Positions 7,209 through 58,061 of a stretch of DNA of 64,000 bases are shown here, one piece after another; positions within the stretch are counted from its first letter, which is position 1; every line of letters starts with the position of its first letter. This DNA comes from an uncultured bacterium (GTDB taxonomy: Bacteria > Patescibacteriota > Gracilibacteria > Absconditabacterales > Absconditicoccaceae): contig CAUSVV010000002.1 in the NCBI GenBank assembly GCA_963535415.1, positions 100,688 through 164,687 on the forward strand, written 5' to 3'. The translations under genes and the position numbers were made by a program. The notes under the pieces were generated by a model. That model did no database searches and was not told where the DNA came from. It was given only the letters and a program-made list of their open reading frames with translations.

Positions 7209-7215
7209 TAATTTC

Positions 7216-11544: not shown

Positions 11545-11595
11545 AATTATTTGAATGCAATATAAAGAAACAAAGTACTCCTAAACTACTGTTTA

Positions 11596-12672: not shown

Positions 12673-12689
12673 TTTCTCTCAAGATAATA

Positions 12690-12720
12690 AAAAAAGAGCC
12701 AAAAATCTGGCTCTTTTTTC
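12690..12720. terminator. Bidirectional intrinsic terminator
   Basis: AAAAAAGAGCC-AAAAATC-TGGCTCTTTTTT between convergent genes. Confidence 0.7.
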
Positions 12721-12733
12721 ACTATTTGATACA

Positions 12734-14005
12734 TTAAATCTCCTCCATTTGCACAGGGACCGATTCAGATTTTTCTATCTGATTTCCATTTCCTAGTTGA
12801 TCTAAGCTGGTTGTATTCTCAGTTTCTGTTTGAACCGAAACCTGCTGATTCCCAGCACCAGATCCAGCAAAACCATCAATACTTTCAACCGGATTTTGGA
12901 CAAACTGCTTGGTTTTTTCAACAAAATTAGTTGCCCCCTGTTTGATTCCTGAGAAAACATTTTCGATAGGATTAAGCTGAACAGGAACCGATTGCGCCAC
13001 TACTTGAGTCTGAGAAGCATTCTCAGGCATTTGAAGAGGAACTGCATCTTGAATTTGTACAGGGACAGATTCAGTCGCCTGAACTGGAACTTGAAAAGGA
13101 ACTTGAACTCCTACACCCTGAACCGAATTTACAACTTGTCCTCACATCTGCTGAGCAGAAGCGACAACTTGCTGTCATGATTGCATGACTTGATTTCCTA
13201 TATTTTGGACTCCAGCCATTGGATCAGCTACAAAATTCTGAACTCCTCAAACTGGATTGCTTGCAAACTGCGAAACTCCATTCATCATCTGTCCTCACAT
13301 ATTTTGCATATTTGAAACTACTCCTCATCAAACATTCTGAACACCGTTCATTACTTGACCTCACATCTGTTGAGCAGAAGCCATCACCTGTTGCCCTGAT
13401 TGCATGACTTGATTTCCTATGTTTTGTACTCCAGCTATTGGATTAGCTACAAAATTCTGAACTCCTCAAACTGGATTGCTTGCAAAATTTTGAACATTCC
13501 CAGCAAGATTTTGTGCATTAGTCTGGATTGAATCTTTAAGCTGTCCTCACATATCAACCCCCTTATTGATCAGGTTTGTTGCCTGATTTGCAACCATTGT
13601 TGGAGCTGAAGTTATTGCACCTGCAACAGCATTCGTTTTCTCAGTAATCTTTCCAGCAATATTTGAGGTTGTGCTGGTAATACTATTAGCTACAGAAGTT
13701 GTCTTATCGAGCAAATTTTGAGTACTCGCGACTAATTTTCGAAAAAATCAAGGCTCCTGCTGAGGAACTTGTTGCACCTCAATAGGCATTTGCGCTACTC
13801 ATTCTTGATCCATCCCCTGATGAGCTGGAGCAGATTCTCCATTTTTAAGCCCAGTAATAGGATCAGGCTGCCCAGTCGCTTTAGCAATAAATCCAACAAG
13901 CTTACCAAGCATTCTATCAAAAAAAGATGGTTGCTTTGGCTCTGGAGGATTTACATGAGAGAGTGGAACTGTAGTAATGTTTTGAGCAGATACTGCTTCT
14001 GGCAT
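12734..14005 (-). CDS. Gln/Val/Gly/Asn-rich low-complexity repeat protein (423 aa)
   Basis: Track ORFs 13799-14005 and 12734-13030 share a frame. I checked every in-frame triplet between them and found no TAA/TAG and 11 TGA. Repeats of the type NPVGGVQNFVA, GNQVMQSGQQV and ASAQQMGGQV. Confidence 0.7.
13136..13487 (-). repeat. Internal tandem duplication, two ~130-bp near-identical copies with a 220-bp period
   Basis: 13136-13267 and 13356-13487 are near-identical (CCTCACATCTG.TGAGCAGAAGC...TGATTGCATGACTTGATTTCCTAT.TTTTG.ACTCCAGC.ATTGGAT.AGCTACAAAATTCTGAACTCCTCAAACTGGATTGCTTGCAAA). Confidence 0.8.
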
Positions 14006-14043
14006 CTTTTGTTTTTATAAAGAACTAAAAGTCTTCATATCTA

Positions 14044-14071
14044 AGTATAATTCTTTTTTATAAAAAGTCAA
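14044..14071 (-). promoter_or_regulatory. Sigma70-type promoter, TTGACT-16-TATACT
   Basis: Minus strand TCAGATTTTTTTGACT..TATACT upstream of the repeat-protein gene. Confidence 0.6.
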
Positions 14072-14181
14072 AAAAATCTGAAAGAAAACCATAAATATCC
14101 CTATAGAATATTTTTTGTAGTGTCTATCTTACGATTCTATAGGAATAAACGACTTGACTTATGACAGGAATTATATAATAT

Positions 14182-14982
14182 ATGAATGTAAAAAAAATTA
14201 TTTTGCATATGAAAGGAATTATTAAATTGGCTAAATCTATTTTTAGCATCGGAATCTGTTTTGTTCTCCTATGGATTGTATTCAATTATCTAATAGGGAA
14301 AGAGATCTTTAACATGTATCCAATAATTGGATACCTATTAACTGTTGTTGCCTGCCTGAATATTGCATTGTTGCTAAGCATTTTATTGCAAGCTACAATG
14401 AAGAAGGGAGGACTAAAGGAAGTAGATATTCGAGTGACCAGAACTGGTGCTCTATGGATAATATCCTTCTTGATACCATACTTCTTTATCTTTGGAACAA
14501 ATATTGGAGTGACCTACTACAGTCCTCTAATAATAACCCAAAAAGGATTAGTGACTTTGACATGCATAGGAGCGATGTGGTTATTATTAAAACTCAAAGC
14601 TCACGGTATAACATGGCTCTATTATTTATTCTTTATGATTGTTACCGGGGCTCTTATGCACCTGGTCGAACATACTAATTGGAATAGATTCATGTTAGTA
14701 GTGGCTTGCCTAGGAGTTTTTATCGCTCCTACATATATTATACGAGAACGATGGAAAAGAAGCTCTGGCGATAAAGACTGGCTTTATCTTTCTCTAATGT
14801 TTCATATCGTCTTAGCAAGTATCATTGTCATCAACCCTGTAGGGAATCTCAGTCAGATTTTTATTTACCTTTTCCTAGTTAGTCCACTTTTAGTAACTAT
14901 TTTTGTTTCAAATCACATAGAAACAACAAAGGAACAAGAAACTAAAACAAGGTTGCCAAGAAAGAATAAAAACAACAGCTAG
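14182..14982 (+). CDS. Polytopic membrane protein (about 7-8 TM), unknown function
   Basis: Intact 266-aa hydrophobic ORF. Terminator at about 15012-15045. The -10 TATAAT ends 2 nt before the first ATG, so the true start may be ATG 14209. Confidence 0.7.
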   Translation: MNVKKIILHMKGIIKLAKSIFSIGICFVLLWIVFNYLIGKEIFNMYPIIGYLLTVVACLNIALLLSILLQATMKKGGLKEVDIRVTRTGALWIISFLIPYFFIFGTNIGVTYYSPLIITQKGLVTLTCIGAMWLLLKLKAHGITWLYYLFFMIVTGALMHLVEHTNWNRFMLVVACLGVFIAPTYIIRERWKRSSGDKDWLYLSLMFHIVLASIIVINPVGNLSQIFIYLFLVSPLLVTIFVSNHIETTKEQETKTRLPRKNKNNS

Positions 14983-15151
14983 ATAAACAACAGATCTCAA
15001 CAAAACAGAAGAATAGCTAGAGAAGTTTCTTTTCTAGCTATTTTTGTTTTTATAAAATTCTTCACTGATTTGATAGCTAAGACATTTTTTCCTGTCTCTC
15101 CATCAATTCAAAACACCTCGCCTCTTTGAGTTCAATAGTTTTAAGAATCCC

Positions 15152-16984
15152 TCACAAGTGTTCGGAAAGTAAAGCAATCTCATCATAAGGCAAATCCTTA
15201 TTATCAAAGATACGACTAATTTGTTGTTTTTCATCTTCAAGTTCTTCAAGTTCCTTGATCAATTGCTGAAGCTCAATATTTTCTGCATACGAGAGCTTTT
15301 TTATTGAGGTTGATGACTCAGAAGTTTTTGAAGAAAGATCAACAGAAACCTGATGAGAAGAGTCAGTTTTTTGTTCTTTTTGCTGAGTTTGGAGCTGATT
15401 TCGCTCTGTATACGTTCCTCGAAAATCAGTTACCTTTCCCTCCCCCTCAAAAACAAACAAATGATCAACCAATCTATCCATAAATGCTCTATCATGAGAG
15501 ACAATCAGTAAACATCCACGAAACTGCAACAAAAAATCCTCTAAAATTCTGATCGTCAAAAGATCTAAATCGTTTGTTGGTTCATCTAAAATCAAAAAAT
15601 TTGGATTTGCCATCAGCGTTTTTAAAAGAAAGAGCCTCCTTTTCTCACCTCAGCTGAGGGAAGTGGCAAACTGATACTGCTGCTGAGCAGGAAACAAAAA
15701 CCTTTCCAAAAGCATTGAAGCCGATATCTTCTCTCCACCAGCCAAAACAAGATATTCACCAACATCTCTAATCACATCAATTACTCTTTTTCACTCTGGA
15801 AACTCAATCTCACCCTGCTGATAATGTCAAAACACTACAGTCTGCCCAACTTGAAGCACTCCACTATCAGGCAACTCCTCTCAGAGCAAAAGTTTTATAA
15901 AAGTCGACTTCCCAACTCCATTTTTCCCAATAATTCAAATACGCTCCTGAAACTTAAAATCATAAGAAAACTGATCTAAAATCATTTTTTGACCGAAAGC
16001 TTTTTTCAGATTTTTTATTTTAAGAATCTTAGTTCAAAGTCTCCTCTCCTGCACTGGGATATCAAGCACACCAGATTCCGAATACAAAAGCTCTTTTTGC
16101 TCATCATACTGGCTCTCTAACTGATAAAATTCTTTTTGTCTATAATTTTGTTTAGTCGCTCTTGCCCTTGGCGATTTACGCATCCAAACGAGTTCCCTTT
16201 TGAGCAGCTGACGAAGCTTTTCTATGGCAATCGATTCATTTTCTCTCCTCTCAGCTTGCTTCTGCAAAAAATAACTATAATTTCATGGATAAAAATACAG
16301 TTTTCATCTATCTAACTCATAGATCTCATCACATACACTTTCCAAAAAATACCTATCATGCGTTATCATAAACAAGGTAGAATGTTGATTTTTGAGATAA
16401 TTTTCAAGCCACTCAATCATCTGTAAATCCAAATGATTAGTTGGTTCATCAAGTACCAAAAAATCTGGTTCATCAATCAGTGTTTTCGCTAAAGCTACTC
16501 TTTTCAGCTCTCAGCCCGAGAGCGTTGAAAGCGGCTGTTGAAGAAGAGATGTCAACTGTAATCTAGAAATAATAGTGTTTACTTTAGACTCATAGTCCCA
16601 CGCCTGGATCGCATCAATTTCATCAAAAAGCTGCTGAAAACGCTCAGGATCAGTATCTGGGTTCTGTACGAGTCATTCGTATTCTCTGATCAAACTTGCA
16701 GCTGGATGAGAGATTGCAAACAACTCCTCTGCTATCGTATGATTCAGATCTCCACGAAAATCCTGAGGCAAATATCAGATTTTAAGCCCCTTTCTCCATT
16801 CTACCTTTCCATCAGTTTTATCTAGTTCTCACATAAGAAGCCTCAAAAGTGTGGTCTTTCCTCCCCCATTCTTGGCAACAAGAGCAATCTTTTGCCCCTG
16901 CTCTACAGTAAAACTTAAATGATCAATAATCGGTCTCCCAGTATAAATTTTCGTCAACTGATCTACCTTTAACTCCCAAGCCAT
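15152..16984 (-). CDS. ABC-F family ATPase (Uup/EttA-like, two ABC domains)
   Basis: Walker A NGGGKTT, signature LSGGE, Walker B LVLDEPTNHLD and ILDEPTNDLD. Track ORFs 16829-17011, 16034-16267 and 15152-15613 share a frame. In-frame triplets checked for 16268-16520. Confidence 0.85.
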
Positions 16985-17054
16985 TTTCCATTGCAATATA
17001 AAACAATCCAAGTCTAGTAATTTTCTCTATAGATACAATAAAAAATTAAAAAAT

Positions 17055-17082
17055 TTGACATCTCTTGAGCTTTAAGTATACT
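17055..17082 (+). promoter_or_regulatory. Sigma70-type promoter, TTGACA-16-TATACT
   Basis: Consensus boxes 33 nt upstream of ATG 17115. Confidence 0.6.
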
Positions 17083-17114
17083 ATAAGCAATTTAGCATCA
17101 TTTCTCATAAAAAG

Positions 17115-17816
17115 ATGAATACTCCAGGTAATGGTCCAGGACCTTCTCCAAGCGGATACCAAGAATTGAGAGATTTTTTTAAGGAAAGAAATAAACAATC
17201 TGAATTTTCTCTCCTTTTTAATAGTTTCTGTCAAACTACTCCATTTGGACAAGATCTAGAAACAATACAGAGAAACTTTATCCGTTTTCTAGATGACGTA
17301 TGGCATAAGTCTGGACACAATTTTCAAGCCGCTGTAAGATCCCTAGGGAGACAAATCCCTATGAAGGAATTAAGTACTTTTTTGTCTACCTATCTTGCTT
17401 ATCGCAAATCACTACACCCTACAGCAGAAAAAATACAAGAAACTCAATATCAGCTCGTTGAGAATATTAATACAAAAACTAACAATCAACCAGAATATAT
17501 CAGGCTCCTAAAAACAGGGAAAACAGTTCTAGACCTAACAACTGATGAGCAAAAGCTATTTGAGAAAATATGCAAAAAACATAAAGGGAAAAAGGTTATT
17601 GTAGATCTTTTTTATGAGTGTTATCTCGAGTATAAAGACACCAAAGAACCAGATTTTTCAGATGCACAAGATCTCTATCGCCCTAGAATATCAGCACACG
17701 AAGAGGTAATCCATAAATACCTCTATGCTTTTCGAAGCAAGGACTCAGGGATTAAACATGATATAATAGGTCTTTTCTACCGTATTGAGGAAAGTTTCAG
17801 AAAAAATATCAAGTAA
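17115..17816 (+). CDS. Hypothetical protein (233 aa)
   Basis: Intact ORF with a promoter and a terminator (about 17838-17873). No motif recognised. Confidence 0.65.
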   Translation: MNTPGNGPGPSPSGYQELRDFFKERNKQSEFSLLFNSFCQTTPFGQDLETIQRNFIRFLDDVWHKSGHNFQAAVRSLGRQIPMKELSTFLSTYLAYRKSLHPTAEKIQETQYQLVENINTKTNNQPEYIRLLKTGKTVLDLTTDEQKLFEKICKKHKGKKVIVDLFYECYLEYKDTKEPDFSDAQDLYRPRISAHEEVIHKYLYAFRSKDSGIKHDIIGLFYRIEESFRKNIK

Positions 17817-17881
17817 ACTTGACCTCTCAAGGCAAAAAGATAAAATTCTGAATCCAGTGTTTTATCTTTTTTATTATACCA

Positions 17882-19240
17882 ATGAATACCTTTGATAATA
17901 TTATTATTTGATTCTGAAAAGGAGGGAAAACCCTCGCAGTTGCGCTCGCAAAAAAATGAGAAACTGTAGCTCTTATTGAGCAAAATCCGGAAATGTACGG
18001 AGGAACATGTATCAATATTTGATGTATTCCATCAAAAAAACTCCTCACACTTTCTCAGGAAAAACATCCAACAACACTTCAAGAGAAATCTGAATACTAC
18101 GAGCAAGCTATAGATGAGACAACTAAGCTAACAGCTTTTCTGAGAGAAAAAAATTATGCAATGCTTGCAGCCTTTGAAAATATTCAAATCATTGATGGAA
18201 CTGCTAGCTTTATTTCTGATCATGAAATCAAAATAACTAGTCCAGAATGAGAAAGAACAATCTCAGGAGAGAAAATCTTTATCAATACCTGAGCAACAAG
18301 CAACCGCCCAGAAATCCCATGAATTGAAAACACAACAAAAGTCTATACCAGTACAGAACTCATGAAAACCAGAGAATACCCTGAACACTTAGCAATCCTA
18401 GGTGCCGGATTTATTGGACTAGAATTTGCTTCAATTTATGCAGACTTTTGATGCAAAGTTACTATCATCAATACCCATCCAAATATTCTTCCTAATGAAG
18501 ATGAAGAAGTCGTAGCAAGAATTAGAGCCGATTTTGAACAGAGAGGTATCCAGTTTCTCGACTCAACAAAGCTCACCGAAATCAACGAGGAAAACAATAA
18601 ACTCAATCTTACACTTGAGACTGAAGATCAGACAAAAAATCTGACAGCTGATGCACTTCTTCTTGCCGTTGGAAGAAGCCCTAATATCAAAGATCTCCAC
18701 CTAGAAAACACAAACATTGAAACCACAGCCAAAGGTACAATAAAAGTCAATGAACACCTTCAGACTTCTGTTCCTAATATCTATGCAATAGGAGACGTAA
18801 CAGGGAACCCACAATTTACCTATATTTCTCTTGATGACTTTAGGATCATCACAGATCAGCTCTTTGGAAAGGCTCAGAGATCGACAAAAGACAGAGAAAC
18901 ATTTGCTTATTGCTCTTTTCTCAACCCACCTTTCGCGAGAATTGGACTCACCGAAAAACAAGCACTTGAACAAGGATACAGTATAAAAGTTTGAAAACTA
19001 GAATGAGCAGCAATTCCCAAAGCAAGAATCCTTGGGAAAGCACAATGACTCTTAAAAGCAGTTATCGACGAGGAAACTGGACTCATCCTTGGAGCATCAC
19101 TGTATTGTGCAGAAACGCATGAAATGATAAATATCATCTCTCTAGCTATGAAGCGAAATCTCCCATACACTGCACTTAGTAGCCATATTTTTACTCATCC
19201 AACAATGAGTGAAGCACTAAATGACCTTTTCAAACTCTAA
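17882..19240 (+). CDS. Class I pyridine nucleotide-disulfide oxidoreductase (RclA / mercuric reductase / lipoamide dehydrogenase-like)
   Basis: FAD-binding IIIGFGKGG (both loop Gly encoded by TGA), redox-active GGTCINIGCIPSK, NAD-binding LGAGFIGLEF, AIGDV, and C-terminal HPTMSE. No track ORF because of about 15 in-frame TGA. Confidence 0.85.
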
Positions 19241-19264
19241 AAAAACACAATCTTTCAAATACAA

Positions 19265-19299
19265 AAAAATCAGTCTAAAAGGCTGATTTTTTCTCTTGT
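19265..19299 (+). terminator. Terminator; direct repeat of 20667-20702
   Basis: AAAAATCAGTCT-AAA-AGGCTGATTTTTTCTCTTGT, identical to the DJ-1 gene terminator 1.4 kb downstream. Confidence 0.7.
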
Positions 19300-19409
19300 C
19301 TTTATAGATAACCCCCGGATTCTTAAGATAAGTAATCTGCGTTCAAAATACTTCAACTCCTAAGCCATTTCCCATGACAATATACAACAATACAAGTCTA
19401 GTAATTTTT
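19300..19409 (-). pseudogene. Chimeric gene remnant: copy of the ABC-F promoter and first codons fused to a copy of the DJ-1 3' end
   Basis: 19355-19409 is about 85 percent identical to 16971-17025 (ABC-F start region). 19300-19349 matches 20791-20839 (DJ-1 C-terminal coding region) with an 88-bp internal deletion relative to the intact gene. Confidence 0.55.
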
Positions 19410-19530
19410 AAAATAAAAAATCCATATAAATATCATTCAATTTCATCTTGTTTTTTAGATAAAGAAGACTAGGATCGAAGTGTAACGAGCATTTTATAAT
19501 TTACCTTTTCCTTTGCATAAAAACATAGAG

Positions 19531-19731
19531 ATGATAAGAAATCCGAACGATTTAGAAAAAAATGAAAGTCAAAACTCTAACAAAAACAACATTGCTAATG
19601 CTATACAACCAATAACACAAAATATTTTTAATGCTATTGGTTATAAGGAATGGAGTGAAAATACAGAATTAATTCTAAGTTCAAACGCATTTAAATCAAC
19701 AAAAGATTGTTCAAGTAGACCTTATTCCTAG
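19531..19731 (+). CDS. Possible small hypothetical protein
   Basis: ORF only (first ATG within track ORF 19513-19731). Asn-rich. Confidence 0.25.
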   Translation: MIRNPNDLEKNESQNSNKNNIANAIQPITQNIFNAIGYKEWSENTELILSSNAFKSTKDCSSRPYS

Positions 19732-42888: not shown

Positions 42889-42959
42889 AAGAGCATAGTG
42901 CAGTGGTAGCACGCCAATCTCCGAAGTTGGAGGTGTAGGTTCGATTCCTACTGCTCTTG
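42889..42959 (+). tRNA. trnR: tRNA-Arg (anticodon CCG)
   Basis: Acceptor AAGAGCA/TGCTCTT, anticodon loop CTCCGAA, T-arm GTAGG-TTCGATT-CCTAC. Confidence 0.8.
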
Positions 42960-43168
42960 AATATTTTGGAAGAAATAAAAAACTGACCACAAAAGTCAGA
43001 TTTTTTGTTTTCTCTCTCACTATAACTATCTAAAAAAATCAACTTCATATAAGAGGAGTCTGTTTTTAACAATAAGATTTTAAGCCTACCAGAATAATTC
43101 TCATTTCCAATTGAAACCAAAAGCCCTTTCCTTATTATCATAAAAAACTTTAACCAAGCGAAACTATA

Positions 43169-44122
43169 ATGGATATCTCTACAATCCTCGCTGAGGCAAA
43201 AACCACAATCAGCGATTTCAAAGATCAAAATCCTGACGGAACAGTCATTATCTGGTGAGCAACTGCAACAGGGAAAACCAAGCTTTCGGTTTTATTATCA
43301 GATTTTTTTGATATTGAGGTGATTTCAAGCGACAGTAGACAAATCTTCAGAAAAATGGACATCTGAACTGATAAAATCAGCAAAGAAATTAGGGAAAAAC
43401 TACCCCATCATCAGATAGATATTGTAGATCCAGATGAAACCTATACTGCATGAGAACGAAAAGAAACAACAGATCAGCTTGTCAATCAAATCTTAACAAA
43501 AGGGAAAATCCCTTTTATCGTAGGAGGAACCTGACTCTATATCGACACAATTTATAAAAATTTCTCTATGCCTGAGTGTGCTCCTGACTATACTCTCAGA
43601 GCAGACTTAGAAAAAAAAGAAGCTGAAAAACCTGGTTTTCTCCACGAACAACTTAAAGCCATTGATCCAGAAGAAGCTCAGAAACTGCATCCAAATTCTA
43701 CCAGATACCTCATTAGAGCTCTAGAAATCTTTTATCTCACAGGAAAAACAAAAACGGAGGGCTATATTCAGCAACCCGTTTCACATCCGCTACTTATGCT
43801 AGGACTCCGAAGAGACAAAGAATCCACAAACCAACTCATCAATCAAAGAATCAAACAAATGTTCAAAGATGGACTCATTGATGAAGTAGAAGGCTTACTC
43901 AAAGAAGGCTATAGTCCAAACCTTCAATCTATGCAAGGGATCTGATACAAAGAAGTTGTAAACTACCTCAACTGAGACTACGGACGTGAAAAGATGGAGG
44001 AACTCCTAAAAAGGAACACGCATCATCTGGCGAAAAAACAAAGGACTTGGTTTAGAAGATATATTGCTGAGGGGATTCAAACACCAAAAGCTTGAGTTGA
44101 ATACAAAGTTCGGGAATTATAA
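43169..44122 (+). CDS. miaA: tRNA dimethylallyltransferase MiaA
   Basis: P-loop GATATGKT (first Gly encoded by TGA), SSDSRQIFRKMDIGT, and HHQID. Same frame as track ORF 43568-43945. Confidence 0.9.
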
Positions 44123-44155
44123 AAAAGAGAAATCAGATTTCTCTTTTCTTTTTTT
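44123..44155. terminator. Bidirectional terminator shared by miaA and the A-D operon
   Basis: AAAAAAGAGAAATC-AGA-TTTCTCTTTTCTTTTTTT. Confidence 0.7.
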
Positions 44156-44168: not shown

Positions 44169-45242
44169 TTAAGCCACCAGTTCCTTCTTTGTATCTGGAG
44201 AAACTCTACCAGCTGATGCAATAAGCTGCTGCCTATCACCAGAAGCCTGATGCCTAGCCAACTGCAGATAATACGGTGGACGCCCAAAATGACGATATCC
44301 AGTAATCTCTCTCACTCTATATCAAACTCAGCTCTTACTTGTCTTTTGTCCATTGAGATCTAAAACTCACTTATCAGTTGAAGAGCCGATTGTTTTCACA
44401 TACCATTTCCCATTCTCCTGATACGGCTGTCCAACGACCATTTCAATATGATAGATTGGATTATGTCTCTTCTTAACTGGCTGTTCATCCCAATACATAA
44501 AATCTCAAACTCTGACTTCTTCTTTTGGAATATTAACATCACTAGCTTCAAAAGCCGCTGCCGTAAAACGAGAATCAAACTTAATCCCTTGCTCCTGAAA
44601 AGCCCAATTCCAAAGTCCTGAACAATCAAATCCACTTGGACCTGTAGCTCACCATTGATATGGCTTTCCAATTTGCCCCTCCGCAGACTTGATTGTCGCC
44701 TCAATGTATGGAATCTGCTCACTCGGTCGATTTTTAATCTCATGATGAGAATCTAGAGATTGCACCTTATGTTCCTGTGGAGAAACTCCCCCAGTAGTGG
44801 AAGAAGCTGAAGAATTCTGATTTCTTTCATTTTTCTGATCTTGAGAAGTATTTTCCTCAGTCTCTCAAGCAGAATCTTGACTTCATTCAGATTTTTCATC
44901 TATTTTACTCAAAACCTCGGCTCTGAGCTGATCAAGTTGTTCCTTAGTATCAACCTTTTTTAGTTTTTCCCTAATCTCTGAAAGCAATCCATGTAAAGAA
45001 CTTAGCTCAAGCGCCTTTCCCATCATATTATCCTTGATCGCATCAAAAAATCACTCAGAAACCAGATAATCAACTACCATATCATCTGCGATACCAAGGA
45101 TAGAAAGCGGATCTTTCTCCTTCATCTTTTCAACAACAGTTTTTGCTAAGTCAGTTTTGAGTTCAACAAGTTCTTCCTGAGTAGAACTAGCCTCTCAGCT
45201 CACAGCATCAATAAACTGTCCTAAATGATCTAATGTTCACAT
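44169..45242 (-). CDS. NlpC/P60 cell-wall endopeptidase with a helical N-terminal domain and no signal peptide (protein D)
   Basis: GKPYQWGATGPSGFDCSGLWNWAFQEQGI (catalytic Cys) and downstream HIEMVVG (His). Track ORF 44396-44743 is the wrong frame. ATG-TGA start at 45242, TAA at 44169. Confidence 0.85.
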
Positions 45243-45266
45243 TCTTTGTAATATAAGCATATAAAA

Positions 45267-48200
45267 TTATAAAAGCTCTTTTGTCAGCCAATCAGCTAAC
45301 TTTTGCACCATTGTATCATCTTTTAAGGCGCCACACTTTGCTTCTAAATCTGATCTCTTCACGAGTGTTGTTCCATCAATAACGAGCGTCGGCTGAAATC
45401 TAAACTTCAAAATCTCCAAACTTGTAAAATCAGTCTTAAATTCAACCTTTTGCCCACGATATTTCGACACACATCGATTTCTCAAGTTCGCTAGCCAAAG
45501 CATTTCATGTAAAGAAAGCTCCAAAGATAAACCTGACAATATAAAGTTATCAGCCTTTTGTTCAAATTTTACCTTATGACCTCGACTTTTAATCTCTGAA
45601 CTCTTTGGTAGATACTCGATATTTCATCTTTTCCCCTGCCAAACGACAGTATCTTTCTGATTTTCAATCTGATTTTGCAAACCTCCAAGTCCTCCAATAA
45701 CCGCTTCCTCAGGCTGAGAAAGTGTTTTAATTTCATAGGTGCACTGAGGGATTTTTGTATCATCAATATACGAAACTACCTCAAGAGAAGAGATCTGCTC
45801 CTGAATACGCTTATCAATTTGAGCGAAAAGTCACTGATTCAGATTCATTTTAGTAATATTCATCTTCGTAGTTCAAATATTTCTCAGCATCCATCACTCC
45901 AAGATCTTTTCAATCACAAGATTTGAAGCACGCAAAGCCAACTTATGTTCCTCAGATTTATCAGACGCCCAAAGTGATTTAAGCGACTTCTCTTCTCCAT
46001 TGATCTTAAGTTTAAGACTTTCTAACTTCTTCACATAGAACTCTTTAATTGGTTGCTGATCTAACGGAGAATCCTTTTCTAAACTCAGATTTCCTTCTTT
46101 ATCAAAAATATTCTGTTGACCAAGCCTAACTGCTTCTTGAAAACTTCCAAAATCATCAATATCATTAGTCAACTTAAACTGACTCACTCTCAAAAGTAAA
46201 CCTTTATATAAATTTTCAAAATACTGAGCATATTCCTCTGATTGCCTCAATGTCAAAGACGCCGCAGTTCACGGAGCATACACCAATAGATTTGCCTTAA
46301 CTTGCTCTCGATCTTTATATTTCTGACTGATGATAAGCTCAAGTTCCCTCGGCAAATCTAAATCATCCTCAAAGCCAAAGCTTCCATCGATTCCCCTCAA
46401 GTCCTCTAACTTTTTATGAGCCAGCTCCACGCGATCAATACATTTCTGCTGTTCAGGACTATATTTTGTCCTATCAGATACTAGATATTGCTTCTCAACT
46501 CCAGCAAAAGCATCTAACCCTCCTATTTCTGAACTCATCGAACAAATCTTCATTTTCCCCGCGTCCCAAGTGAAAAACTTTCTCTGCAGATCACCAAGTC
46601 CAGCTCTTTTCGCCTCAATAATCAGATAATACGGCAATTCCAAATACTCTCCATTAGAAGCATAATTTTTAACAAAAGTAGAAATCTGATTTTTGACCTT
46701 TGTTTGCTCCTCTAAAGTTTTGACCATAAGCTCCTCAGTCAAAATCTCTCTAAGCACTTTCTCAAACTCTTGTTGTAAATAAGGATCAATCGCCTCAGTC
46801 TTGGTATCAATATTTGAGCCACGAATAGCACTAATCAAGCGATCAACCAATCCAGGCACATCCGCTGATTTTATTTCCTTGGGAAGCTGCTGCGATAATG
46901 CACGATCTATCAGCCAATCTCTATTGATCTTCCACTCACTAGTATAGTAAATACCATGAACTCCTCACTTATCCTCTGAAAAGAAAGCCATCAACTCCTC
47001 TGCTGAATTCGCTCCCTCATAGCCATAAAGTCTCTTTGCCAGTTGATACTTTACATTTTGACTTACATCATCAGAATACTCTAAATCTGAATTCCTCTCT
47101 TTAGCAAACTGAACAATATCAACTAATTCGTCCTTATTCAAAGTTTGAAACTGTAATTTCTGCTCATCAAAACCATTTTCAATCAACTTTTCAAGCATAG
47201 CCATATTTCTATTAGTATCCTGAGGAGAAAAGTGTGATACTTCCTCACTTCTCTGCTCAAGACTGAGCCATTCCCTATATTTTTTGATCAACTGTAAATT
47301 CTGACTATACTCAGGAGAATCTCCCTCTGCCATCAAAGAATCAAAATCAGTAACCGAAATAAGCTCCTCAAAAAGAAAACGATTATTCTTTCTCAAATCC
47401 TCAAGCTTTTTAACTTTTTCTCTCGGAAAGTCTGCAAAAAATTCTGATTTAAACTGTGCTAGATTCTTGGCATAATCAAGGTTCTCATCCCATTTTTTAG
47501 CTTCAAACATCTTCAAGTATCCAGCAGACTCTGCAACTAGATCAATCAAACCTGAGGTACCTGCTCAGCTTTTTAGCTTATTCATCAGATTCGGATTTTT
47601 AAACTGCTCAGTTAAATATTTAGTCCTAACAGCAATTTTCTCCTTAACTTTTTTCAAAGAAGTAGTAAACGCCTCAGCTTGCTCTGGGGACAAATCTTTC
47701 AAAAAATCTGACTCAGATTTCCTAGAAGCGATATAATAATGAAGCATCTCATCTGTACTATCTCTCATCTCTTCAATAAAAAGGAGCGAATACAGAGCTT
47801 CATCCAGGTTTTTAGATTTTACATTATCTGCAGGAGCACCAATTTTCTCATTCCAAGACTGGTTTCAAAACTTTTGAGTATGTAAACCTTGCAAAACTGC
47901 TTGCCTAAGCTCAGCTCTACTCTGCCTCAAGAAATCCTCTCTATTCTGCAGATAAAAATCATGCGTATCAAAATACAAGGCATCAGCTCCAATACTCACA
48001 GCCGCAGTCACTGCTCAAACCGCAAGTCAAACAACCACTCCAGGAGCACCACCTACAGCTCCAATCCCACCGCAAATAATAATTGCCTCTATCGCAAAAG
48101 AAGAAAGTCAAACCGCAAGCTGGAAGTTTGCCTGATTTTTCTTGTTTTCTGCCCTTGTTTGATTAACCTTTGCGATCAATTCCGCTTCATCCATCGTCTC

Positions 48201-49313
48201 AAGGTAAGTCCACACATCTAGCCCAAGACATGCCACATCAATCATCATAGCAGCTTTCAAACTTTTTGCCCACTGTGTTAATTTTTTACCTTTTGAGAGG
48301 ACATTACTCATCGCTCGGAACTCCTGCGCATCCTTAGCGGATGCTAAAAGCTTCAGGACATCATCGCTGAGTTCCATATCAACTTTTTTCAATTTCATAA
48401 TCTCGCGAATCTCTGCAGGCGTTTTTCCAATCAATTCATCTGCATATGGAGTAAGCTTTGAAAATTGTCTAGGATGCATGCCAGCAGCAGTCAATAACTC
48501 ATCTGGGATCTGTCCTTTAAGACTATTCCACTGTTTAAACGCCACAAGTCCCTCATCATCCAAAGATTCAAATCCTGAACTCATCTTTTGAATCGTTTTA
48601 TCAATATTTTTGATTTGTCTTTTACTCAAACGAGAACTCAATGCTTTTTTCTCATTTTCCAAATTCTCAATAAGATCATGCATTCCAGATTTCATCTTCG
48701 CTGCATCAATATTATTCAGATTGCGAGCCTCAGCCTGCTTAATCAACCTATCCACAGTCTCAATTCCCCCAACTCCAAGTAGTGAAGTTCAAGCTCCATA
48801 CCCAATATTATGCCAAGAATTTCCTAAAGTATTTGTAGAACTCTCAGGGGAGCTTCCACTAGTCTGCCCCTCTAGACCTACACCTGAAGACGTACTTCAA
48901 GAATGTTGATCTGTGGAAGATGAAGCAGAATGTGAACTTCAAGAAGAATTAGAATTCTGATCTATACTTTCTGTCCCATCAGCTACAGGAGCTTCTCAGA
49001 GAATTTCAGCTTTAAGTCTAGAAAGTTCCTCTTGAGTATTTCTTTTTTCAATCTCTATTCTTTTTGCTTTCATAAATTCGAAAATCTCTTTTGCAGTCGA
49101 AGGCGCTACAAAATCAATAATATATCTCCACCAACCAAACTCCTTTGCCTCATCAAAGTGCTTTGGTAGCTCAGTTTTCCCAACGATAATATCCTTCACT
49201 TTGCTCTCAATAGGCAAAAGTGCTATTGATTTAAACCATCAAAGCTCTTTTTTGAAATCCTCAAGATAATACCCGGAAATTTCCTGTTTAAGTGTTTCTA
49301 CCTGAGTTGACAT
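45267..49313 (-). CDS. Giant orphan protein C (1348 aa): helical, with a Ser/Gly linker and a Gly-zipper-like TM segment
   Basis: Track ORFs 48996-49217, 48108-48755, 47565-47768, 46965-47549, 46269-46859, 45894-46256 and 45267-45539 all lie in one frame. I checked every junction triplet by triplet and found only TGA between them. Confidence 0.75.
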
Positions 49314-49341
49314 AAGACTTTTTTTATTTCATTACATAAAA

Positions 49342-50580
49342 CTAGCTAATCTTAGCTGCAAACTTAAAGAGAGATTTTACACAAGTTACAAACTCATCAG
49401 CATTTTTTATTGCCTTTTTAAATCCATCAGCTTTAATAGTTTTGAAAGTTTTAATCAAACTATCTAATTCTGAATCCAGCACTCAACCAACTTTCTTATT
49501 GAGCAGTTTTGATAATTCATCAACATCAAGATTTTTCAAAATATCATCAAAATTAGAAACCAGTTTATTTCAATTAGCATCTACCGCATCCTGAAGACGA
49601 GAAAGAGTTTTTAACTTTTTGATCGCTGCAAGAGAAAGCCCAGCATCTTGAAATGGTCAAAACATATCTAAAACATCAACTATTTGAGCAACTTCTGAAG
49701 TCGTTTTTCAAGACAACATATCTAAAAATTCATCACAAGAATCAAGTTGTTGCTTGATCTTTAGCTTTCCAGCATCTGAACTAGCTTTTTCTAACTGTTT
49801 TGATAATGAAACTTTTGAATTAAGAGTTCTTTGGACAAGTCCCTTATACTCAGGACTATCCAAGAGCTGCTGAATACCCTTAAAATCAACAGGCAATCCC
49901 TTATTGAATTTATCAACTCCGATCTGCAGTGCATCTGGACTTACACCCGTCCTCACTGCCTCTCTAATATCTGAAGAATGATCAAAGTATTTTACAAGAT
50001 CATCATACAGATTTCTATGATTATTTCTCAGATCTAAGAGATATTGTTGCCCGTTCTTTCTTGTTACATAGGTATCAAAAATCTTAGCAAGATAGTCCTC
50101 TTTCTTGGTATCTTTGGATATATTAAACATCTTGAGCCACTCTTCTCTTTTATTTACATCCATAAATGGTGCATGGCTCTTTCTACTCAAAATACGCTCA
50201 ACTTTTTCAAGAGAAATATCTCAGTTATCAAGTGCCGTAAGCAATTTTTCTTGTCCAAGTTCACCTCTAAAGAAAAGATTTGACTGTACCCAGCTTGGAG
50301 ACCCATAGATCATTTTATTTCTGAGTCTGCTTCCAATCGCAGTTTTGTCCATCAACTTATTCATCACAAAAAGCGGTACTGTCAACGGAGCACCCGCTGT
50401 TTTAAGTCCAAAAATCACAGTTTTATTGCTCCTCATAAGCACTCCTGCAGCACTAATCACAATTCCAGTTCCCAAAAGCGAACCCATAAAAGTAGAAAAA
50501 CCTGACAAATATTCTCAGTTATACACTTGTTTGAGACTCTTTCATAAATTCTTTATCGATCCAAGCAAAAATCCTGGCAC
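49342..50580 (-). CDS. Orphan protein B (~412 aa) with an N-terminal hydrophobic segment
   Basis: Track ORFs 50221-50508 and 49708-50190 share a frame, extended to TAG 49342. Start uncertain: GTG 50580 (adjacent to the stop of A), TTG 50508, or an internal ATG. Confidence 0.65.
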
Positions 50581-52518
50581 TCTATAGATAATATTTCAGT
50601 TCTCATCGATATCTTTTTGGATAGTCATCTGTCCGAGGAAACATTCCTTTTTGAGTGCTAAAAGATCATTCATCACCTGAGCAGTAGCTTTAAGCTCCTC
50701 TGTAGGAATTTCCTCTCAATTCGCCAAACGCTGCTTTTGTTGTTCGAGAAAAGTCTGAGAACCACGGAGTATCTCATGAAGACCAGATTTTTCAATATAT
50801 TCTCTTAAACATGCATTATCTGTTGCAAATAGATCTCCATACATATTTAATACACTCTCCTCAACAGCATCAATCAATTCTTCATCAATATCTTTCGCAA
50901 CATTTTCACATGCCGATTGAAGGTTCTTTTTCTCATCCTGAGTGAATGCTTCTCCAGACTTTTTATTATATGCTACTTGCAAAATATCCGACTTTCCACT
51001 CTGAGCATCCAAGAGCTCATCTCTTCTCTGATCAAGTTTCTGAATCTCATCTTTAAGATCTTGTGAAACATCTGCTGAATCAAGCCCACATTTTTTGAGA
51101 ATATTCATCGCACTAGCAATTGGAGCATCCACAAATGCCTGATAATCAGGATCCTTTGCAATATACTTCTCAAAATTGTCACTATCAGATAGAAGCTCTT
51201 TCTTAGAAATATTAAGGGTCTTAGATTTTTTCTGCGCGATAGCATCAGCAAGCTGATCCTTCTTTTCAAAAAGGAAAGTCTGAACTCTGATCCCTTGCCT
51301 AAAAAAATACTTTAATTCATTTTGGGCCTCCTCACTATTCTCTCACCAGGCCTTAATCTTATCTACGATTGATCCTTCAATATTTTCAACCAATTTCCAA
51401 GACGGCAACTTACTAAAAAATGATTCCACTAGAACAGCAAGTTTCTCGGTACTCCAGCTAAGAATATGATTCTTCATCTTAGCAAATCCCTCTCCTAACA
51501 AGCTCTTAAATGAACTATTTTGCTCCAAAATAGCTGCAACACTTCCATATTGATTATCCAGACAAAAAGGGATGATTCACTTATAATTTTTAGCATCAGG
51601 ATTAGATTTTTTCATTTCATTAGAGATTCTCTGCATTTCTAGCTCATCCTGATATCCAGCATCAAGTTCCTTTTGATAAAAAGTTGAATATAAAACATCG
51701 ATATTCTCTCCAATGGTCTCATAATTTTCAGCCTTTTCCTTATTTTCTGGATTAGAGTGAAACTTATTATATCCATTGTATTTATCACCTCATGACGCTT
51801 CTTTTCATGGTTCAGGATCACCATTAAACCAGTTCCAGAGCTTACTAATCCCCCAAATTGAACCAACAGTTATTCCTCCCCATTTTAGAGCCTTTCAAAA
51901 CCAGCTATTCCAAAATCAGCCTTTTTTCTCTTTTTTTGATTTTGATTCTTCTTTGGTATTTTCCTCCTTTTCTTCCTCCTCATCACTACCAAAGAGCCAC
52001 TTAACGCCCTTATACACAAGTGCAACAGCACCAACTCCTGTAGCTACAAAACCAGCAGTACGAAGAATATTTTTCCCAGGTTCTTTACTCCAAGTTTCCT
52101 TACTACGCACCGCATCTCGCTGCTCTCCAGTAAAATGCTTGAGAGATGCCCAACTTCACTCCTCTTTTTTCTGAGTTAATGTTTTATCTTTCCCATTATC
52201 TGGATTCATAGTCCTAGAATCCTGGTCCGCTTGATCTTTCCCTTGAGAAACCACATCTTCTAGTTTTCAAAGCTCTTTTGAAAAATCAGAAACCTTAGAT
52301 TGCACCTCTGCAATCTTCTCTTTTACATTTTGATCTTTCTCCCTCTCAAACTGAACTTTTGCCAGCTCCTGAACAACCTGAATAGATTGGTAAAGTTCAA
52401 GCTTTTTCTGAGCCTTTTCCTTACTTTCTGTCAGTTTTTTTAAAGCATCAAGATCCGCCTTGATCTTATCAGTCTCAGACTGCAAACTCTTTAAAACATC
52501 AATAGAATTTTGAACCAT
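50581..52518 (-). CDS. Orphan protein A (645 aa): coiled-coil-like with a TM segment and a Trp/Gly-rich patch
   Basis: Track ORFs 52267-52617, 51916-52110, 51343-51528 and 50716-51132 share one frame, joined through TGA (checked triplet by triplet), ending at TAG 50581. ATG 52518 (MVQNSIDVL) is preferred over the upstream Phe/Cys-rich extension. Confidence 0.65.
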
Positions 52519-52743
52519 AACTACAAAAATACAAATAAAATTTTCCATATAAGTATACATAAAAGTACAAAAAAAATAAAATTCTGACTTCTGTTTCTCT
52601 TGTTTATAGCTTGACATTTTTATTTTTTATGATTAGAGCATTATAATTGACTTGCAATCTCTCCTGAGAAAAAATATACTTAGAGTCAGTTTTGAACAAA
52701 AAAACTCAAGAAAACTCTTGTGCTTTAATTCCCCTCAGGAAAA

Positions 52744-53832
52744 ATGTCAACATTAGCAAACATAATCTGAATTCTAACCTATTCCTTGATCAGTATTGGA
52801 CTAGCTATGCTGCTCTATCCACTGTATATCAAGCTCCTTAGAAAACTCAAAGCAGGAAAAACTATCCGTGAAAACAACGCCACTGGAGAAAAATCCGAAA
52901 TATTTGCAAAACTCCACTCTCACAAAGCAGGAACTCCAACGATGGGATGAGGACTCTTCATGGTGATTATGCTAATCATGATCTGACTTTCCTTTATCCT
53001 ACAAAAAAAAGGAATCATCACCTACTCACTGCGAAATAGCAAAGAAACCTATATTATTCTCTTCGGTTTTTTTAGCATGTGATTGATTGGACTAGTTGAT
53101 GACTGGCTTAATATCAAAAACTTCTGAAAGATCAAGTGATTAAGCGCAAAGGCAAAAATGACAGGGATGATCCTCTTTTCAGCCTTCATCTCCTATTGGT
53201 TTTATGTAAAACTAGGTATCGACTATATCAATCTACGACCCCTTTGATGAAAAATAGAAATCTGAATCTTCTTCCCAATTTTAACCTTCCTCACAACAAT
53301 TGGAATCGTTAATGCCATCAACATCACAGATGGGCTTGATGGACTAGCTGGTGGACTCATCATCATCGTCCTTTGATGCCTTGGTATCTCAACCTTCCTC
53401 AATGGAACCTATATCGCGACGACAATTATCTCAATTCTCATTTCAGTTTTAGTAGCTTTCCTCTTCTACAATATCAATCCAGCAAAAGTCTTTATGGGTG
53501 ATAGCTGAGCTTTCGCACTAGGAGGAATTGTTGCATCACTTCTCTACCTGCTCAATATGAGATTTTGAATCATTATCCCCTTCATCATAATTTTCTGAGT
53601 TTTCATCTTAGAATTCCTCTCAAGCGGGCTCCAAATCTTCTGGAAAAAAATCCTCAAAAGAAAGCTCTTCGCAGTAGCACCTTTTCATCATCTGCTTGAA
53701 TACAAAGGAATGCAAGAGTCTACAATCGTAATGAAAATCTGGCTCATCCAAGCGATCCTAGGTATTATCTGAGTTATTTTCATCCTTGTGCAGTACTTAA
53801 CTCTTAAACATCCTATCATCTATATTTCTTAG
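52744..53832 (+). CDS. mraY: Phospho-N-acetylmuramoyl-pentapeptide transferase MraY
   Basis: NAINITDGLDGLAGG, VFMGDSGAFALGG, and APFHHLLE. About 15 in-frame TGA, so it is absent from the track. Confidence 0.9.
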
Positions 53833-54877: not shown

Positions 54878-54949
54878 GCTCTCGTAGTTCAATGGATAGA
54901 ATAGGCCCGTCCTAAGGGTTAGATGTAGGTTCGATTCCTACCGAGAGTA
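54878..54949 (+). tRNA. trnR: tRNA-Arg (anticodon CCT)
   Basis: Acceptor GCTCTCG/CGAGAGT, anticodon loop GTCCTAA, T-arm GTAGG-TTCGATT-CCTAC. Confidence 0.75.
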
Positions 54950-55025
54950 CGTGGACATTCCGAAAAAGGCAATTTGCTTTTGGGTTTGTTCAGAATTCTT
55001 TTTATTTTTATAAGTGGTTTGTTTA

Positions 55026-56512: not shown

Positions 56513-56600
56513 TTTTTCTCTAAAATCCTCTCAAAAAGTTGCAAAATAAAAAAATCTAAATATAATCAGCCTTAGCTTTATATTCTATACAAAATAAAAT

Positions 56601-58061
56601 ATGTCAAACGTAAAAGACCTTTTACCAACACTTAATGATCATCAATTGGCTTATGTCAATCTTGATCTCCCAAATCCAAAAAATGGACAATATATGCTTG
56701 TTGCAGCTCACTTTCAACCTGGAAAATCAATGAACATTCTCCAGGCAGCTTGTGAAGTTGCAGCTGAATCATCTACTGGAACAAATTTCCTAGTTGAGAC
56801 GGAAACAGCCTTTTCAAAAGAAATGAATGCCCTTGTTTACAAGGTGGATGTAGAAAAAGAGCTTATCTGGATCGCATACCCATGGAGACTTTTTGATAGA
56901 GGTTGAAATATTCAGAATATTCTAACCTATATTGCAGGAAATGTCTTTGGAATGAAGGAAGTAAAAGCATTAAAAATTCTTGATGTATGGTTTCCACCTG
57001 CAATGCTTGAACAATACGACGGACCAAGCTATACCCTAGCAGACATGAGAAAATACCTCAATGTTTACAATAGACCAATCCTAGGAACCATCATCAAACC
57101 AAAGATGGGACTTACCTCTGCTGAATACGCTGAGGTGTGTTACGATTTTTGGGTATGAGGAGGAGACTTTGTAAAAAATGATGAACCACAAGCAAATCAG
57201 GATTTTTGTCCTTATGATAAAATGGTCAAACACGTAAAGGAAGCTATGGACAAAGCAGTAAAAGAAACCTGACAGAAAAAGGTACACTCTTTCAATGTAT
57301 CAGCTGCTGATTACGATACCATGATCGAAAGATGTGAAATGATTAGAAACGCAGGATTTGAACCAGGATCTTATGCATTCCTAATTGATGGTACAACAGC
57401 AGGTTGGATGGCAGTTCAAACCTTGAGAAGAAAATATCCAGATGTATTTATCCACTTTCATAGAGCTGGGCATGGTGCATTCACTAGACCAGAAAACCCT
57501 ATTGGATACTCAGTTTTAGTCCTTTCAAAATTTGCAAGACTCGCTGGAGCTTCTGGAATCCATACAGGAACTGCAGGAGTTGGGAAAATGGCTGGAGATA
57601 AAGCAGAAGATGTAACTGCAGCAGAAGGTATCAGATATATGAAAAAGACTGGACATATCTTTGAACAGTCTTGGGGAACAATTCCTGAAACGGATAAAGA
57701 CTTTGTAACGCTCGTACAAAGAGACGAAGATAACGAAGAAGTACTTACTGATGATAGCTGGAGAGCAATCAAGACCTGCTGCCCTATCATCTCCGGAGGT
57801 CTTAACCCAACTCTTCTCAAACCTTTCATTGATCTCATGGGAAATGTAGACTTCATCACAACAATGGGTGCGGGATGTCACGCTCATCCAAAGGGAACTC
57901 AGTCAGGAGCTAAAGCTCTTGTGCAAGCCTGTGAAGCATATCAAAAAGGAGTAGATATTCATGAATATGCTAAAAATAAGCCTGAACTCGCTGAAGCAAT
58001 TGCATTCTTTGAAAAACCATCTACAAAAGAAAAGATGAAAACACTTAGAATTGCAGCATAA
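56601..58061 (+). CDS. rbcL: RuBisCO large subunit, form II/III-like
   Basis: GTIIKPKMGL, GGDFVKNDEPQ (carbamylated Lys and metal ligands), HFHRAGHGA, SGIHTGT, SGGL and GAGCHAHPKG. Track ORFs 56601-56906, 56952-57158 and 57321-58061 share one frame. An insertion EQSWGTIPETDKDFVTLVQRDEDNEEVL lies before SGGL. Confidence 0.9.

Follow-up and report, generated by a model that had tools for sequence, protein, structure and literature searches.

What are two giant proteins of no recognisable family doing beside a peptidoglycan hydrolase that lacks a signal peptide? This question is raised by a 64,000-nucleotide stretch of DNA (hereafter the window) from an uncultured member of the Absconditicoccaceae (GenBank assembly GCA_963535415.1, contig CAUSVV010000002.1), in which three genes that we call AB, C and D follow one another on the minus strand. 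AB and C encode the giant proteins, and D encodes the hydrolase, which is of the NlpC/P60 type. The linkage of the genes, the occurrence of AB-C fusions and the sharing of N-terminal "handle" domains show that AB, C and a changing set of wall enzymes, of which D is one, form one functional module. Coordinates are window positions unless a homologous locus is named; loci and proteins from other genomes carry our L and P numbers.

The unit, its genetic code and the AB-C pair

The unit consists of three co-directional genes on the minus strand. A first-pass annotation had described a four-gene operon, with A (50581-52518, 645 amino acids (aa)) and B (49342-50580, ~412 aa) as separate genes ahead of C and D. 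We found no stop at the A/B boundary (50580/50581): the codons at 50586-50575 read TAT AGA GTG CCA, a TAG occurs out of frame only, and A and B are instead one open reading frame (ORF) of 1058 aa. The coordinates of C (45267-49313, 1348 aa) and D (44169-45242, 357 aa) held, as did the common strand and the gaps of 28 nucleotides (nt) between AB and C and 24 nt between C and D, whereas the 0-nt gap between A and B fell away. The three genes are as follows.

49342..52518, minus strand: gene AB, 1058 aa, ATG at 52518, a predicted all-helical orphan membrane protein with no TAA or TAG
45267..49313, minus strand: gene C, a 1348-aa orphan protein directly downstream of AB
44169..45242, minus strand: gene D, 357 aa, handle plus linker plus NlpC/P60 domain, ending ...ELVA

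The window has a GC content of 36%, and long frames appear only when TGA is read as sense. TGA stands at the P-loop glycines of Adk (GIQ#SGKGT, with # at the TGA), MurE (GVT#TNGKT), MiaA and UvrD (AGAGS#KT), and also at the GGDF glycine of a RuBisCO homologue in the window; therefore, the code is code 25 (TGA = Gly) and not code 4. A TGA-reading tRNA-Gly(UCA) was absent from the 64-kb window. Under code 25, the stop-to-stop frames on the minus strand span 49342-52626 (AB), 45267-49331 (C) and 44169-45266 (D) and contain 17, 17 and 10 in-frame TGA codons, respectively, and no in-frame TAA or TAG, in agreement with the earlier observation that only TGA breaks them. Frames of 1058 and 1348 codons could not have come about by chance, because TAA and TAG should make up an estimated ~5% of codons at 36% GC. 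Proteins in public collections were called with code 4, and the entries carry Trp at TGA positions for that reason (median 5.2% Trp among AB-family matches).

Synteny bore out the earlier view of these genes as a unit. In every locus that the AB or C searches brought up (L001-L018, L020, L038-L043, L050 and L053), AB lay immediately upstream of C; AB-C fusions exist, and wall enzymes recur downstream. The AB search returned 12 full-length homologues, all single genes of 1028-1146 aa directly upstream of a C homologue; for C there were 14, sharing 35-92% identity and all devoid of Pfam domains. An AB-family profile matched 313 clusters in 1.84e9 representatives, 98 of them at E <=1e-30 and nearly all from TGA-recoded genomes, with Ca. 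Gracilibacteria bacterium and Ca. Absconditicoccaceae bacterium among the named members. The 90% clusters hold 714 and 1035 sequences, and the oral SR1 lineage is common in human samples; loci nearly identical to that of the window (92-96%) occur in human-oral metagenome-assembled genomes (MAGs), including one SR1 bacterium. The window itself comes from an SR1 (Absconditabacteria) bacterium of the human mouth. The genes that flank the pair vary: hisS/gyrA and glyS in L001, a sigma-70 gene and uvrC in L003, and mraY and miaA in the window, L008, L013 and L016. L053, from a MAG labelled Ca. Gracilibacteria, has AB, C, a wall enzyme and a convergent miaA in the same order as the window. One further copy of the window's locus, L037 (BNJS01003833.1), lies in many frame-shifted pieces, which most likely reflects an error-rich assembly rather than pseudogenisation.

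AB and C are also found as one protein. Six of the nine AB-family representatives longer than 1500 aa matched the C profile in their C-terminal halves, giving six representative clusters of fused proteins of 1700-2044 aa. We verified one fusion on DNA, in L051, where positions 4450-10584 form a continuous 2044-codon frame with 62 in-frame TGA codons. Such fusions argue for physical association of AB and C (the gene-fusion or "Rosetta stone" signal). Another fusion, P0098, is a 1723-aa "hypothetical protein" of Candidatus Vampirococcus lugosii whose size and annotation equal those of VAMP_54_69, one of that predator's ten largest proteins, which were inferred to be membrane-located (PMC8080830). 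The L051 fusion gene lies within eight co-directional orphan genes (99-19584 of that locus; products of 1439, 2044, 404 (a Cys/His enzyme), 308, 107, 1304, 354 and 412+ aa), a block that may be a larger version of the AB-C system.

Handles, anchors and the wall-enzyme slot

We delimited the parts of the three proteins with alignments, Kyte-Doolittle profiles and AlphaFold2 (AF2) models. The models were of proxies, P0015 (a 94%-identical AB orthologue) and P0009 (aa 1-1018 of a C homologue at 43% identity), which bear Trp at TGA positions or come from the 43%-identical homologue. Both models were almost wholly helical, with a predicted local distance difference test score (pLDDT) of 61 for each and predicted template modelling scores (pTM) of 0.29 and 0.50, respectively.

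52234..52518, minus strand: AB N-terminal coiled-coil handle (aa 1-95; AF2 helices 2-28, 32-59 and 63-95), then a low-complexity linker
51823..52071, minus strand: AB anchor module (aa 150-232), comprising the hydrophobic helix ILRTAGFVATGVGAVALVY, a charged K/E loop and a Trp/Gly-rich second helix
50362..50502, minus strand: AB second hydrophobic hairpin (aa 673-719) with the short basic turn MRSNK, by Kyte-Doolittle and AF2
48984..49313, minus strand: C N-terminal handle (aa 1-110), the most conserved part of C, with a dense run of invariant columns
48759..48998, minus strand: C Ser/Gly/Thr-rich low-complexity linker (aa 106-185), alignment-variable, AF2 pLDDT <50
47970..48131, minus strand: C Gly/Ala/Val-rich hydrophobic helix-break-helix (aa 395-448, 54 residues), Kyte-Doolittle maximum 2.07
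44895..45242, minus strand: D N-terminal handle, D-N (aa 1-116), in which VVDYLVxEG is invariant and the last helix reads T-x-E-x-L-x-x-L-K/R-A-E-I/V-L
44451..44669, minus strand: D NlpC/P60 catalytic core (aa 192-264 by Pfam; domain to about aa 330), by Pfam and PDB alignment

D is a leaderless NlpC/P60 protein, as first annotated. It matched PF00877 at 49.4 bits (cutoff 23; E 5e-13) over aa 192-264 and the NCBIfam RipC-type domain at E 2e-15, and its best PDB match was RipC in the FtsEX-RipC entry 8idc (E 1.7e-9). The Cys of FDCSGL and the His of IYHIE align to catalytic positions of RipC and CD1368. The start at 45242 is backed by homologue alignment, D has no signal peptide, and Kyte-Doolittle analysis gave no hydrophobic segment in it.

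The first-pass annotation had placed an NlpC/P60 gene at the end of the unit. That particular gene is not conserved. Across lineages, the genes after C instead encode a helical D-N domain of ~115 aa, a low-complexity linker and then differing peptidoglycan-active domains; the third gene is a slot for varied wall enzymes with a common N-terminal handle rather than a fixed gene. The domains found behind the handle are listed here.

Window: NlpC/P60
L008, L038a, L042b and L044-L049: YkuD_2 (PF13645, E 1e-33 to 1e-35)
L042a: Peptidase_M15_4 (E 8e-17)
L053: VanY-like M15
L013, L016 and L038b: orphan domain with invariant Cys and His

The D-N family was recovered by a pattern scan of metagenomes; a word-indexed search gave three fragments only. 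The Cys/His orphan domain also occurs in L051, behind a different N-domain. Slot enzymes sometimes stand in arrays of two to four. The array of L038 encodes a D-N-YkuD_2 protein, a standalone YkuD-like protein, a D-N-Cys/His protein and a standalone NlpC/P60 protein of 164 aa that is 57% identical to the catalytic domain of D. We considered the standalone YkuD-like gene as an immunity decoy and rejected this, since its His and Cys residues are kept. None of the slot enzymes has a signal peptide, whereas an M23 peptidase encoded elsewhere in the window (1838-2935, minus strand; PF01551, E 6e-27) has a classical N-terminal signal or anchor. The organism therefore exports other wall hydrolases by the ordinary route.

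The handle of the enzymes is related to that of C. Comparison of D-N with the C N-domain gave an hhalign probability of 84%. When 5198 ORFs were searched with a D-motif hidden Markov model (HMM), the first matches outside D were C N-termini (E about 2e-3), and in the reverse search of ~5200 ORFs with a C N-domain HMM, the only matches outside C were D-like, including L053 at E 3.9e-5 over positions 4-122 (119 positions). The C handle ends in the motif T-x-E-E-L-x-x-L-K-A-E-I-L-G just ahead of the low-complexity linker, and D-N ends in a like manner, with a T-x-E ... K/R-A-E helix before its own linker. The C N-domain is missing from the AB-C fusion proteins, as would be expected if its job is docking.

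AB contributes a second type of handle. In L050, C bears the AB-type coiled-coil handle instead of its own (49% identity between the C and AB handles, E 3e-30), and three paralogues begin with this type of handle as well. The locus (29% GC) shows an expansion of the handle family: five or six genes at 3928-16040 start with such a handle, and the run ahead of AB and C includes short proteins of handle plus anchor only, as well as one protein with a weak Rib-domain match. More widely, the N-terminal module of AB (aa 1-235, the coiled coil plus two hydrophobic helices) is reused in many shorter proteins, and in P0084 this anchor module is fused directly to YkuD_2 (E 1e-18). Because handles are shared with C and P0084 joins an enzyme to the AB anchor, wall enzymes are tied to the AB-C pair in two ways, by the C-type handle or by fusion to the anchor of AB.

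The handle-bearing enzymes also share a C-terminal feature. We surveyed the C-terminus of D (44169-44180) and of D-like genes in L008, L013, L014, L016, L019, L038, L042, L044, L048, L051 and L053. A hydrophobic or small residue followed by a terminal Ala was present in 13 of 15 handle-bearing enzymes, across five catalytic folds (ELVA, TAVA, KLVA, RQLA, DQVA, QSIA, YMNA, RLVA, SYTA, SIMA, SMAA, FTMA and GFTA). A terminal Ala occurred in 3 of 120 other ORFs of the same loci (Fisher p 1e-13, for sequences that are phylogenetically non-independent), and two handle-less standalone enzymes lacked the hydrophobic-Ala tail. The tail may serve as a degron, as a PDZ ligand or in export; it resembles the recognition tails at the C-termini of ssrA/ClpXP or Prc/Ctp substrates.

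Each of A, B and C had been said to carry one short Gly/Ala/Val-rich hydrophobic segment. Kyte-Doolittle analysis upheld the positions, although AB has a helix pair and a second hairpin rather than single segments. Its first hydrophobic helix covers aa 150-172 and its Trp/Gly-rich helix aa ~200-232; the loop between them holds a conserved KKEKK, and K196, K198, K199, F202 and W203 are conserved columns. The second hairpin consists of Kyte-Doolittle segments 673-697 and 700-719, with AF2 helices at 670-694 and 698-725. In C, the AF2 model of the hydrophobic segment shows two helices with a break at GGP, and the flanks, basic on the N-terminal and acidic on the C-terminal side, are highly conserved with invariant residues. 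C further contains an invariant AGLGDLQR-x-FF (aa ~908-915, 46570-46593), which served as a search pattern. The GLGD of this motif may recall the PDZ carboxylate-binding GLGF loop, and an LWNWF patch an MPER-like segment; neither presumed likeness was used as evidence.

Searches for relatives and surroundings of the unit

A, B and C had been reported to lack any assignable family, and AB and C were orphans in all profile and fold searches that we made. Neither had a significant match in Pfam, NCBIfam, PHROG, PADLOC or the PDB sequence set. Their best PHROG match, a family without known function that aligned over the hydrophobic hairpin, was not significant (E 8e-4), nor was an NCBIfam echo of the C hydrophobic segment in SseD (E 0.05). 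A PDB sequence search with family profiles gave colicin Ib only (E 0.001, over an AB coiled-coil stretch outside the hairpin) and nothing for C, D-N or the Cys/His domain. The PADLOC defence models matched none of AB, C and D. Foldseek searches of the models gave no PDB match at E <0.7, with none at E <1 for P0015 and colicin Ia at E 2.7; against BFVD, the best match had E 0.028, template modelling (TM) scores were at most 0.13 in the top ten, and a tape-measure protein appeared at E 0.057 and TM 0.08. Searching AB and C by tblastn against 50,697 phage records gave no match. We also rejected AB and C as mutual paralogues (hhalign probability 29%). No description of the AB/C family was found in the literature. 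In curated libraries, no relatives of AB, C, D-N or the Cys/His domain can be detected.

The neighbourhoods were checked over about +/-8 kb in the window and +/-10 kb in the close relatives L006 and L007, and they agreed with the earlier remark that no phage, type IV or type VII secretion system (T4SS, T7SS) hallmarks lie in or near the unit. No VirB4, VirD4, VirB6 or VirB3-like gene and no EssC/EccC-type ATPase was present within these distances, and D-N had no Pfam match to LXG or WXG100. An invariant YxxxE within the VVDYLVxEG of D-N, which may recall a T7SS signal, is too short and was not used as evidence. There was no ABC domain in AB or C, and none adjoining them in the window.

Core genes flank the unit, as first annotated, with miaA (43154-44122, plus strand) convergent to D and mraY (52729-53832, plus strand) divergent from AB. 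Genes for a ComF-like phosphoribosyltransferase, a membrane protein, a Mur ligase, Adk and DprA lie farther away. GC content shows no local anomaly at the unit. Two intergenic features border it.

44124..44150, no strand: AT-rich inverted repeat with a 13-bp stem between convergent D and miaA, a candidate bidirectional terminator
52519..52728, no strand: divergent AB/mraY intergenic region, a presumed promoter region by position only

A shared bidirectional terminator had been placed at 44123-44155. The AT-rich hairpin is present, with T-runs on both strands, but it is weak (dG -11.1 kcal/mol, z -1.87), and a GC-dependent consensus terminator scan did not call it. The claim that the unit has no internal terminator agrees with our count of 9 terminator-like sites, not above the 6.1 +/- 2.5 found in shuffles. 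Promoter-like scan matches were not counted as evidence of function.

Several other features of the window were recorded. Genes for tRNA-Trp(CCA), tRNA-Arg(TCG), RNase P RNA, tRNA-Arg(CCG) and tRNA-Arg(CCT) lie at 4463-4955 (minus strand), 42889-42959 (plus) and 54878-54950 (plus). The RuBisCO large-subunit homologue (56598-58061, plus strand; assigned by Pfam on the syntenic gene of L006), a known feature of these lineages, adjoins S1 and NusB-like genes. At 12734-14014 (minus strand), a 427-codon frame encodes a Gln/Gly/Asn/Val-rich protein with long internal repeats (NPVGGVQNFVA-P-AGVQNIGNQVMQSGQQV...) and no Pfam match; on the opposite strand there is likewise an open frame, though one with 30 TGA codons. 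Two adjacent small orphan paralogues at 7648-8235 and 8226-8819 (minus strand) have common SY-DLKE-SKA...W-PKLF--ESG motifs and no Pfam match.

What the module may do

Our leading reading, which we hold with less than even confidence, is that the module is an envelope apparatus, specific to the lineage, for docking or exporting interchangeable wall hydrolases, probably where the cell touches a host. We favour the host interface because the enzymes lack Sec signals, their domains are swapped, they occur in arrays, and the proteins diverge fast in a lineage with a predatory or epibiotic lifestyle. Between the window and L008, L013 and L016, MiaA is 72-79% and MraY 77% identical, compared with 26-34% for AB, about 40% for C and 36-43% for D-N; the divergence of AB, C and D-N thus runs at two to three times that of the flanking core proteins. 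A predator documented to attach to and consume its host belongs to the lineage (PMC8080830). The apparatus would be specific to TGA-recoded Patescibacteria, that is, SR1/Absconditabacteria and relatives labelled Gracilibacteria. AB and C, giant helical proteins, would form one physical unit held in the membrane by short Gly-rich hydrophobic helices. As a heuristic, the KKEKK of AB, the basic turn of its hairpin and the flank charges of C suggest cytoplasmic handles and external bodies, with most of the AB-C mass outside the cell. The wall enzymes would serve as cargo or as accessory subunits that can replace one another. As they carry no Sec signal, we infer that the handle recruits them to AB-C, which would export them or present them at the surface, where they would open peptidoglycan; the likeliest target would be the host wall at the site of attachment. 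The topology, the physical docking, export and this target are all inferred.

Several observations weigh against this apparatus. The topology comes from charge heuristics, and if the hairpins are read naively, all parts, even D, end up in the cytoplasm. Neither the unit nor the genes beside it encode an ATPase or another energy source, so the mechanism of export is not evident. The same enzyme types normally serve to mature a cell's own wall as well, and the unit lies beside mraY and a Mur ligase. At the third catalytic position of D, manual alignment gives the Lys of YVKTIGSS and not a His; the PF00877 match ends at profile position 71 of 105, and the same Lys is kept in the standalone copy of L038. 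A small protein with no recognisable wall enzyme follows C in L001, L015, L018 and L003, and signal-peptide proteins, again with no recognisable wall enzyme, follow the Vampirococcus fusion (L052). Some D-N enzymes are unlinked to AB-C (L046 and L047), no immunity-like gene was found at the unit, and the AF2 models, built on proxies, have low confidence (pLDDT 61).

The nearest comparison for a housekeeping role is with hydrolases governed by FtsEX (RipC, CwlO, PcsB and EnvC), which likewise pair a membrane complex with a helical-linker-catalytic hydrolase. AB-C could be a scaffold on which the cell's own peptidoglycan endopeptidase, L,D-transpeptidase and carboxypeptidase are arranged or activated in growth and division, analogous to FtsEX-PcsB/CwlO/RipC; this is the main rival reading, and we regard it as a serious possibility, though a doubtful one. 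RipC and CwlO have a helical N-domain, a linker and a C-terminal NlpC/P60 domain, a layout that D resembles, and the D domain is closest to RipC in both NCBIfam and the PDB, including the FtsEX-RipC entry. The adjoining mraY and nearby Mur ligase, retention of the unit in core-gene contexts in every lineage sampled, and enzyme types typical of wall maturation point the same way. However, the similarity to RipC is restricted to the catalytic domain of D, AB and C are unrelated to FtsEX, no FtsE/FtsX-like ABC component adjoins the unit, and the enzymes are leaderless although the M23 peptidase of the window has a signal. The swapping of catalytic folds between close lineages and the fast divergence would also be unusual for housekeeping. 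If the naive topology is taken at face value, the leaderless enzymes might be docked inside the cell on AB-C and trim imported host muropeptides for reuse, which we think very unlikely. M15 VanX-type dipeptidases are cytoplasmic, which would suit such salvage. Leaderless cytosolic NlpC/P60 recycling enzymes (YkfC) exist (PMC9928106), and the lineage is unable to make most building blocks (PMC8080830). Against salvage, the SH3b domains of YkfC are missing from D, neither AB nor C has a detectable transporter domain, and the Ser/Thr-rich linkers, tandem enzyme arrays and membrane-anchored YkuD_2 better fit extracytoplasmic enzymes.

AB and C might instead be giant surface adhesins or fibres for host recognition, with the enzymes tethered nearby or co-regulated and no export involved. 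The giant membrane proteins of Vampirococcus were attributed to a fibrous surface and host attachment (PMC8080830), and AB and C are fast-diverging, long, helical and of low complexity. We nevertheless find this quite unlikely, as it leaves unexplained both the handle shared by C and leaderless enzymes and the enzyme fused to the AB anchor, and the searches gave no domain of the adhesion type, such as Ig, FN3 or PKD. The combination of an NlpC/P60 lysin with very long helical proteins that have Gly-rich hydrophobic stretches inside them also recalls phage tape-measure proteins and tail lysins, and the conjugative T4SS of monoderms (PrgK, TcpG, Tn916 Orf14) couple an NlpC/P60- or CHAP-type hydrolase to a membrane machine; Patescibacteria bear repurposed MPF-FATA T4SS (bioRxiv 10.1101/2025.01.22.634366). 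The catalytic domain of D matches PHROG "minor tail protein" families (E 3e-16) as well as Tn916-like hydrolases and a hub-hydrolase in the PDB, and tape-measure proteins were among the non-significant BFVD matches. A phage or mobile-element remnant is nonetheless extremely unlikely. AB and C had no sequence or fold match to phage proteins, no capsid, portal, tail, VirB4, VirD4, VirB6 or VirB3 gene lies nearby, and the chromosomal pair is vertically conserved in varied core contexts with no GC anomaly. A tape-measure or prophage identity of AB and C was rejected on the PHROG, tblastn and BFVD results and the core-gene neighbours. The patescibacterial T4SS survey contains no component resembling AB or C (bioRxiv 10.1101/2025.01.22.634366).

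The envelope apparatus that we favour resembles the polymorphic effector systems (LXG effectors of T7SSb, Tae/Tlde1 of type VI secretion (T6SS) and X-T4SS) in its logic: leaderless proteins with a conserved N-domain and a variable enzyme domain, arrays beside apparatus genes, and wall-active cargo that includes an L,D-transpeptidase fold. It differs from them in that the slot enzymes have no LXG, WXG, PAAR, VgrG or XVIPCD, no secretion ATPase or immunity gene is present, and the handle is also found on an apparatus protein, C. In a bolder version, which we consider unlikely, AB-C would be a contact-dependent delivery or feeding machine and a new class of interbacterial secretion or translocon system, with no homology to types I-XI. 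Its cytoplasmic handles would bring in leaderless hydrolases for export, and its Gly-rich hairpins and Trp-rich juxtamembrane helix would enter or disturb the host membrane, so that first the prey wall and then its membrane would be opened. Type III secretion (T3SS) translocators (SseD/IpaB) and colicin pores are likewise leaderless and coiled-coil-rich with a buried Gly/Ala-rich helical hairpin; however, none of the matches to them reached significance, AB and C exceed them in size three- to fivefold, and a T3SS is absent.

For the attachment of Absconditabacteria and Gracilibacteria to their bacterial hosts, and for the way in which they breach and drain them, the module is a concrete, testable candidate. 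It offers two apparatus proteins, a docking domain, assayable cargo enzymes and a C-terminal tail motif, and its fused AB-C homologue appears as no more than a giant "hypothetical protein" in the only organism-level study, that of Vampirococcus (PMC8080830). If leaderless hydrolases are indeed exported by AB-C, this would be a new secretion logic and would explain part of the orphan fraction in these reduced genomes. Even as a housekeeping scaffold, the module would represent a new way to control autolysins.

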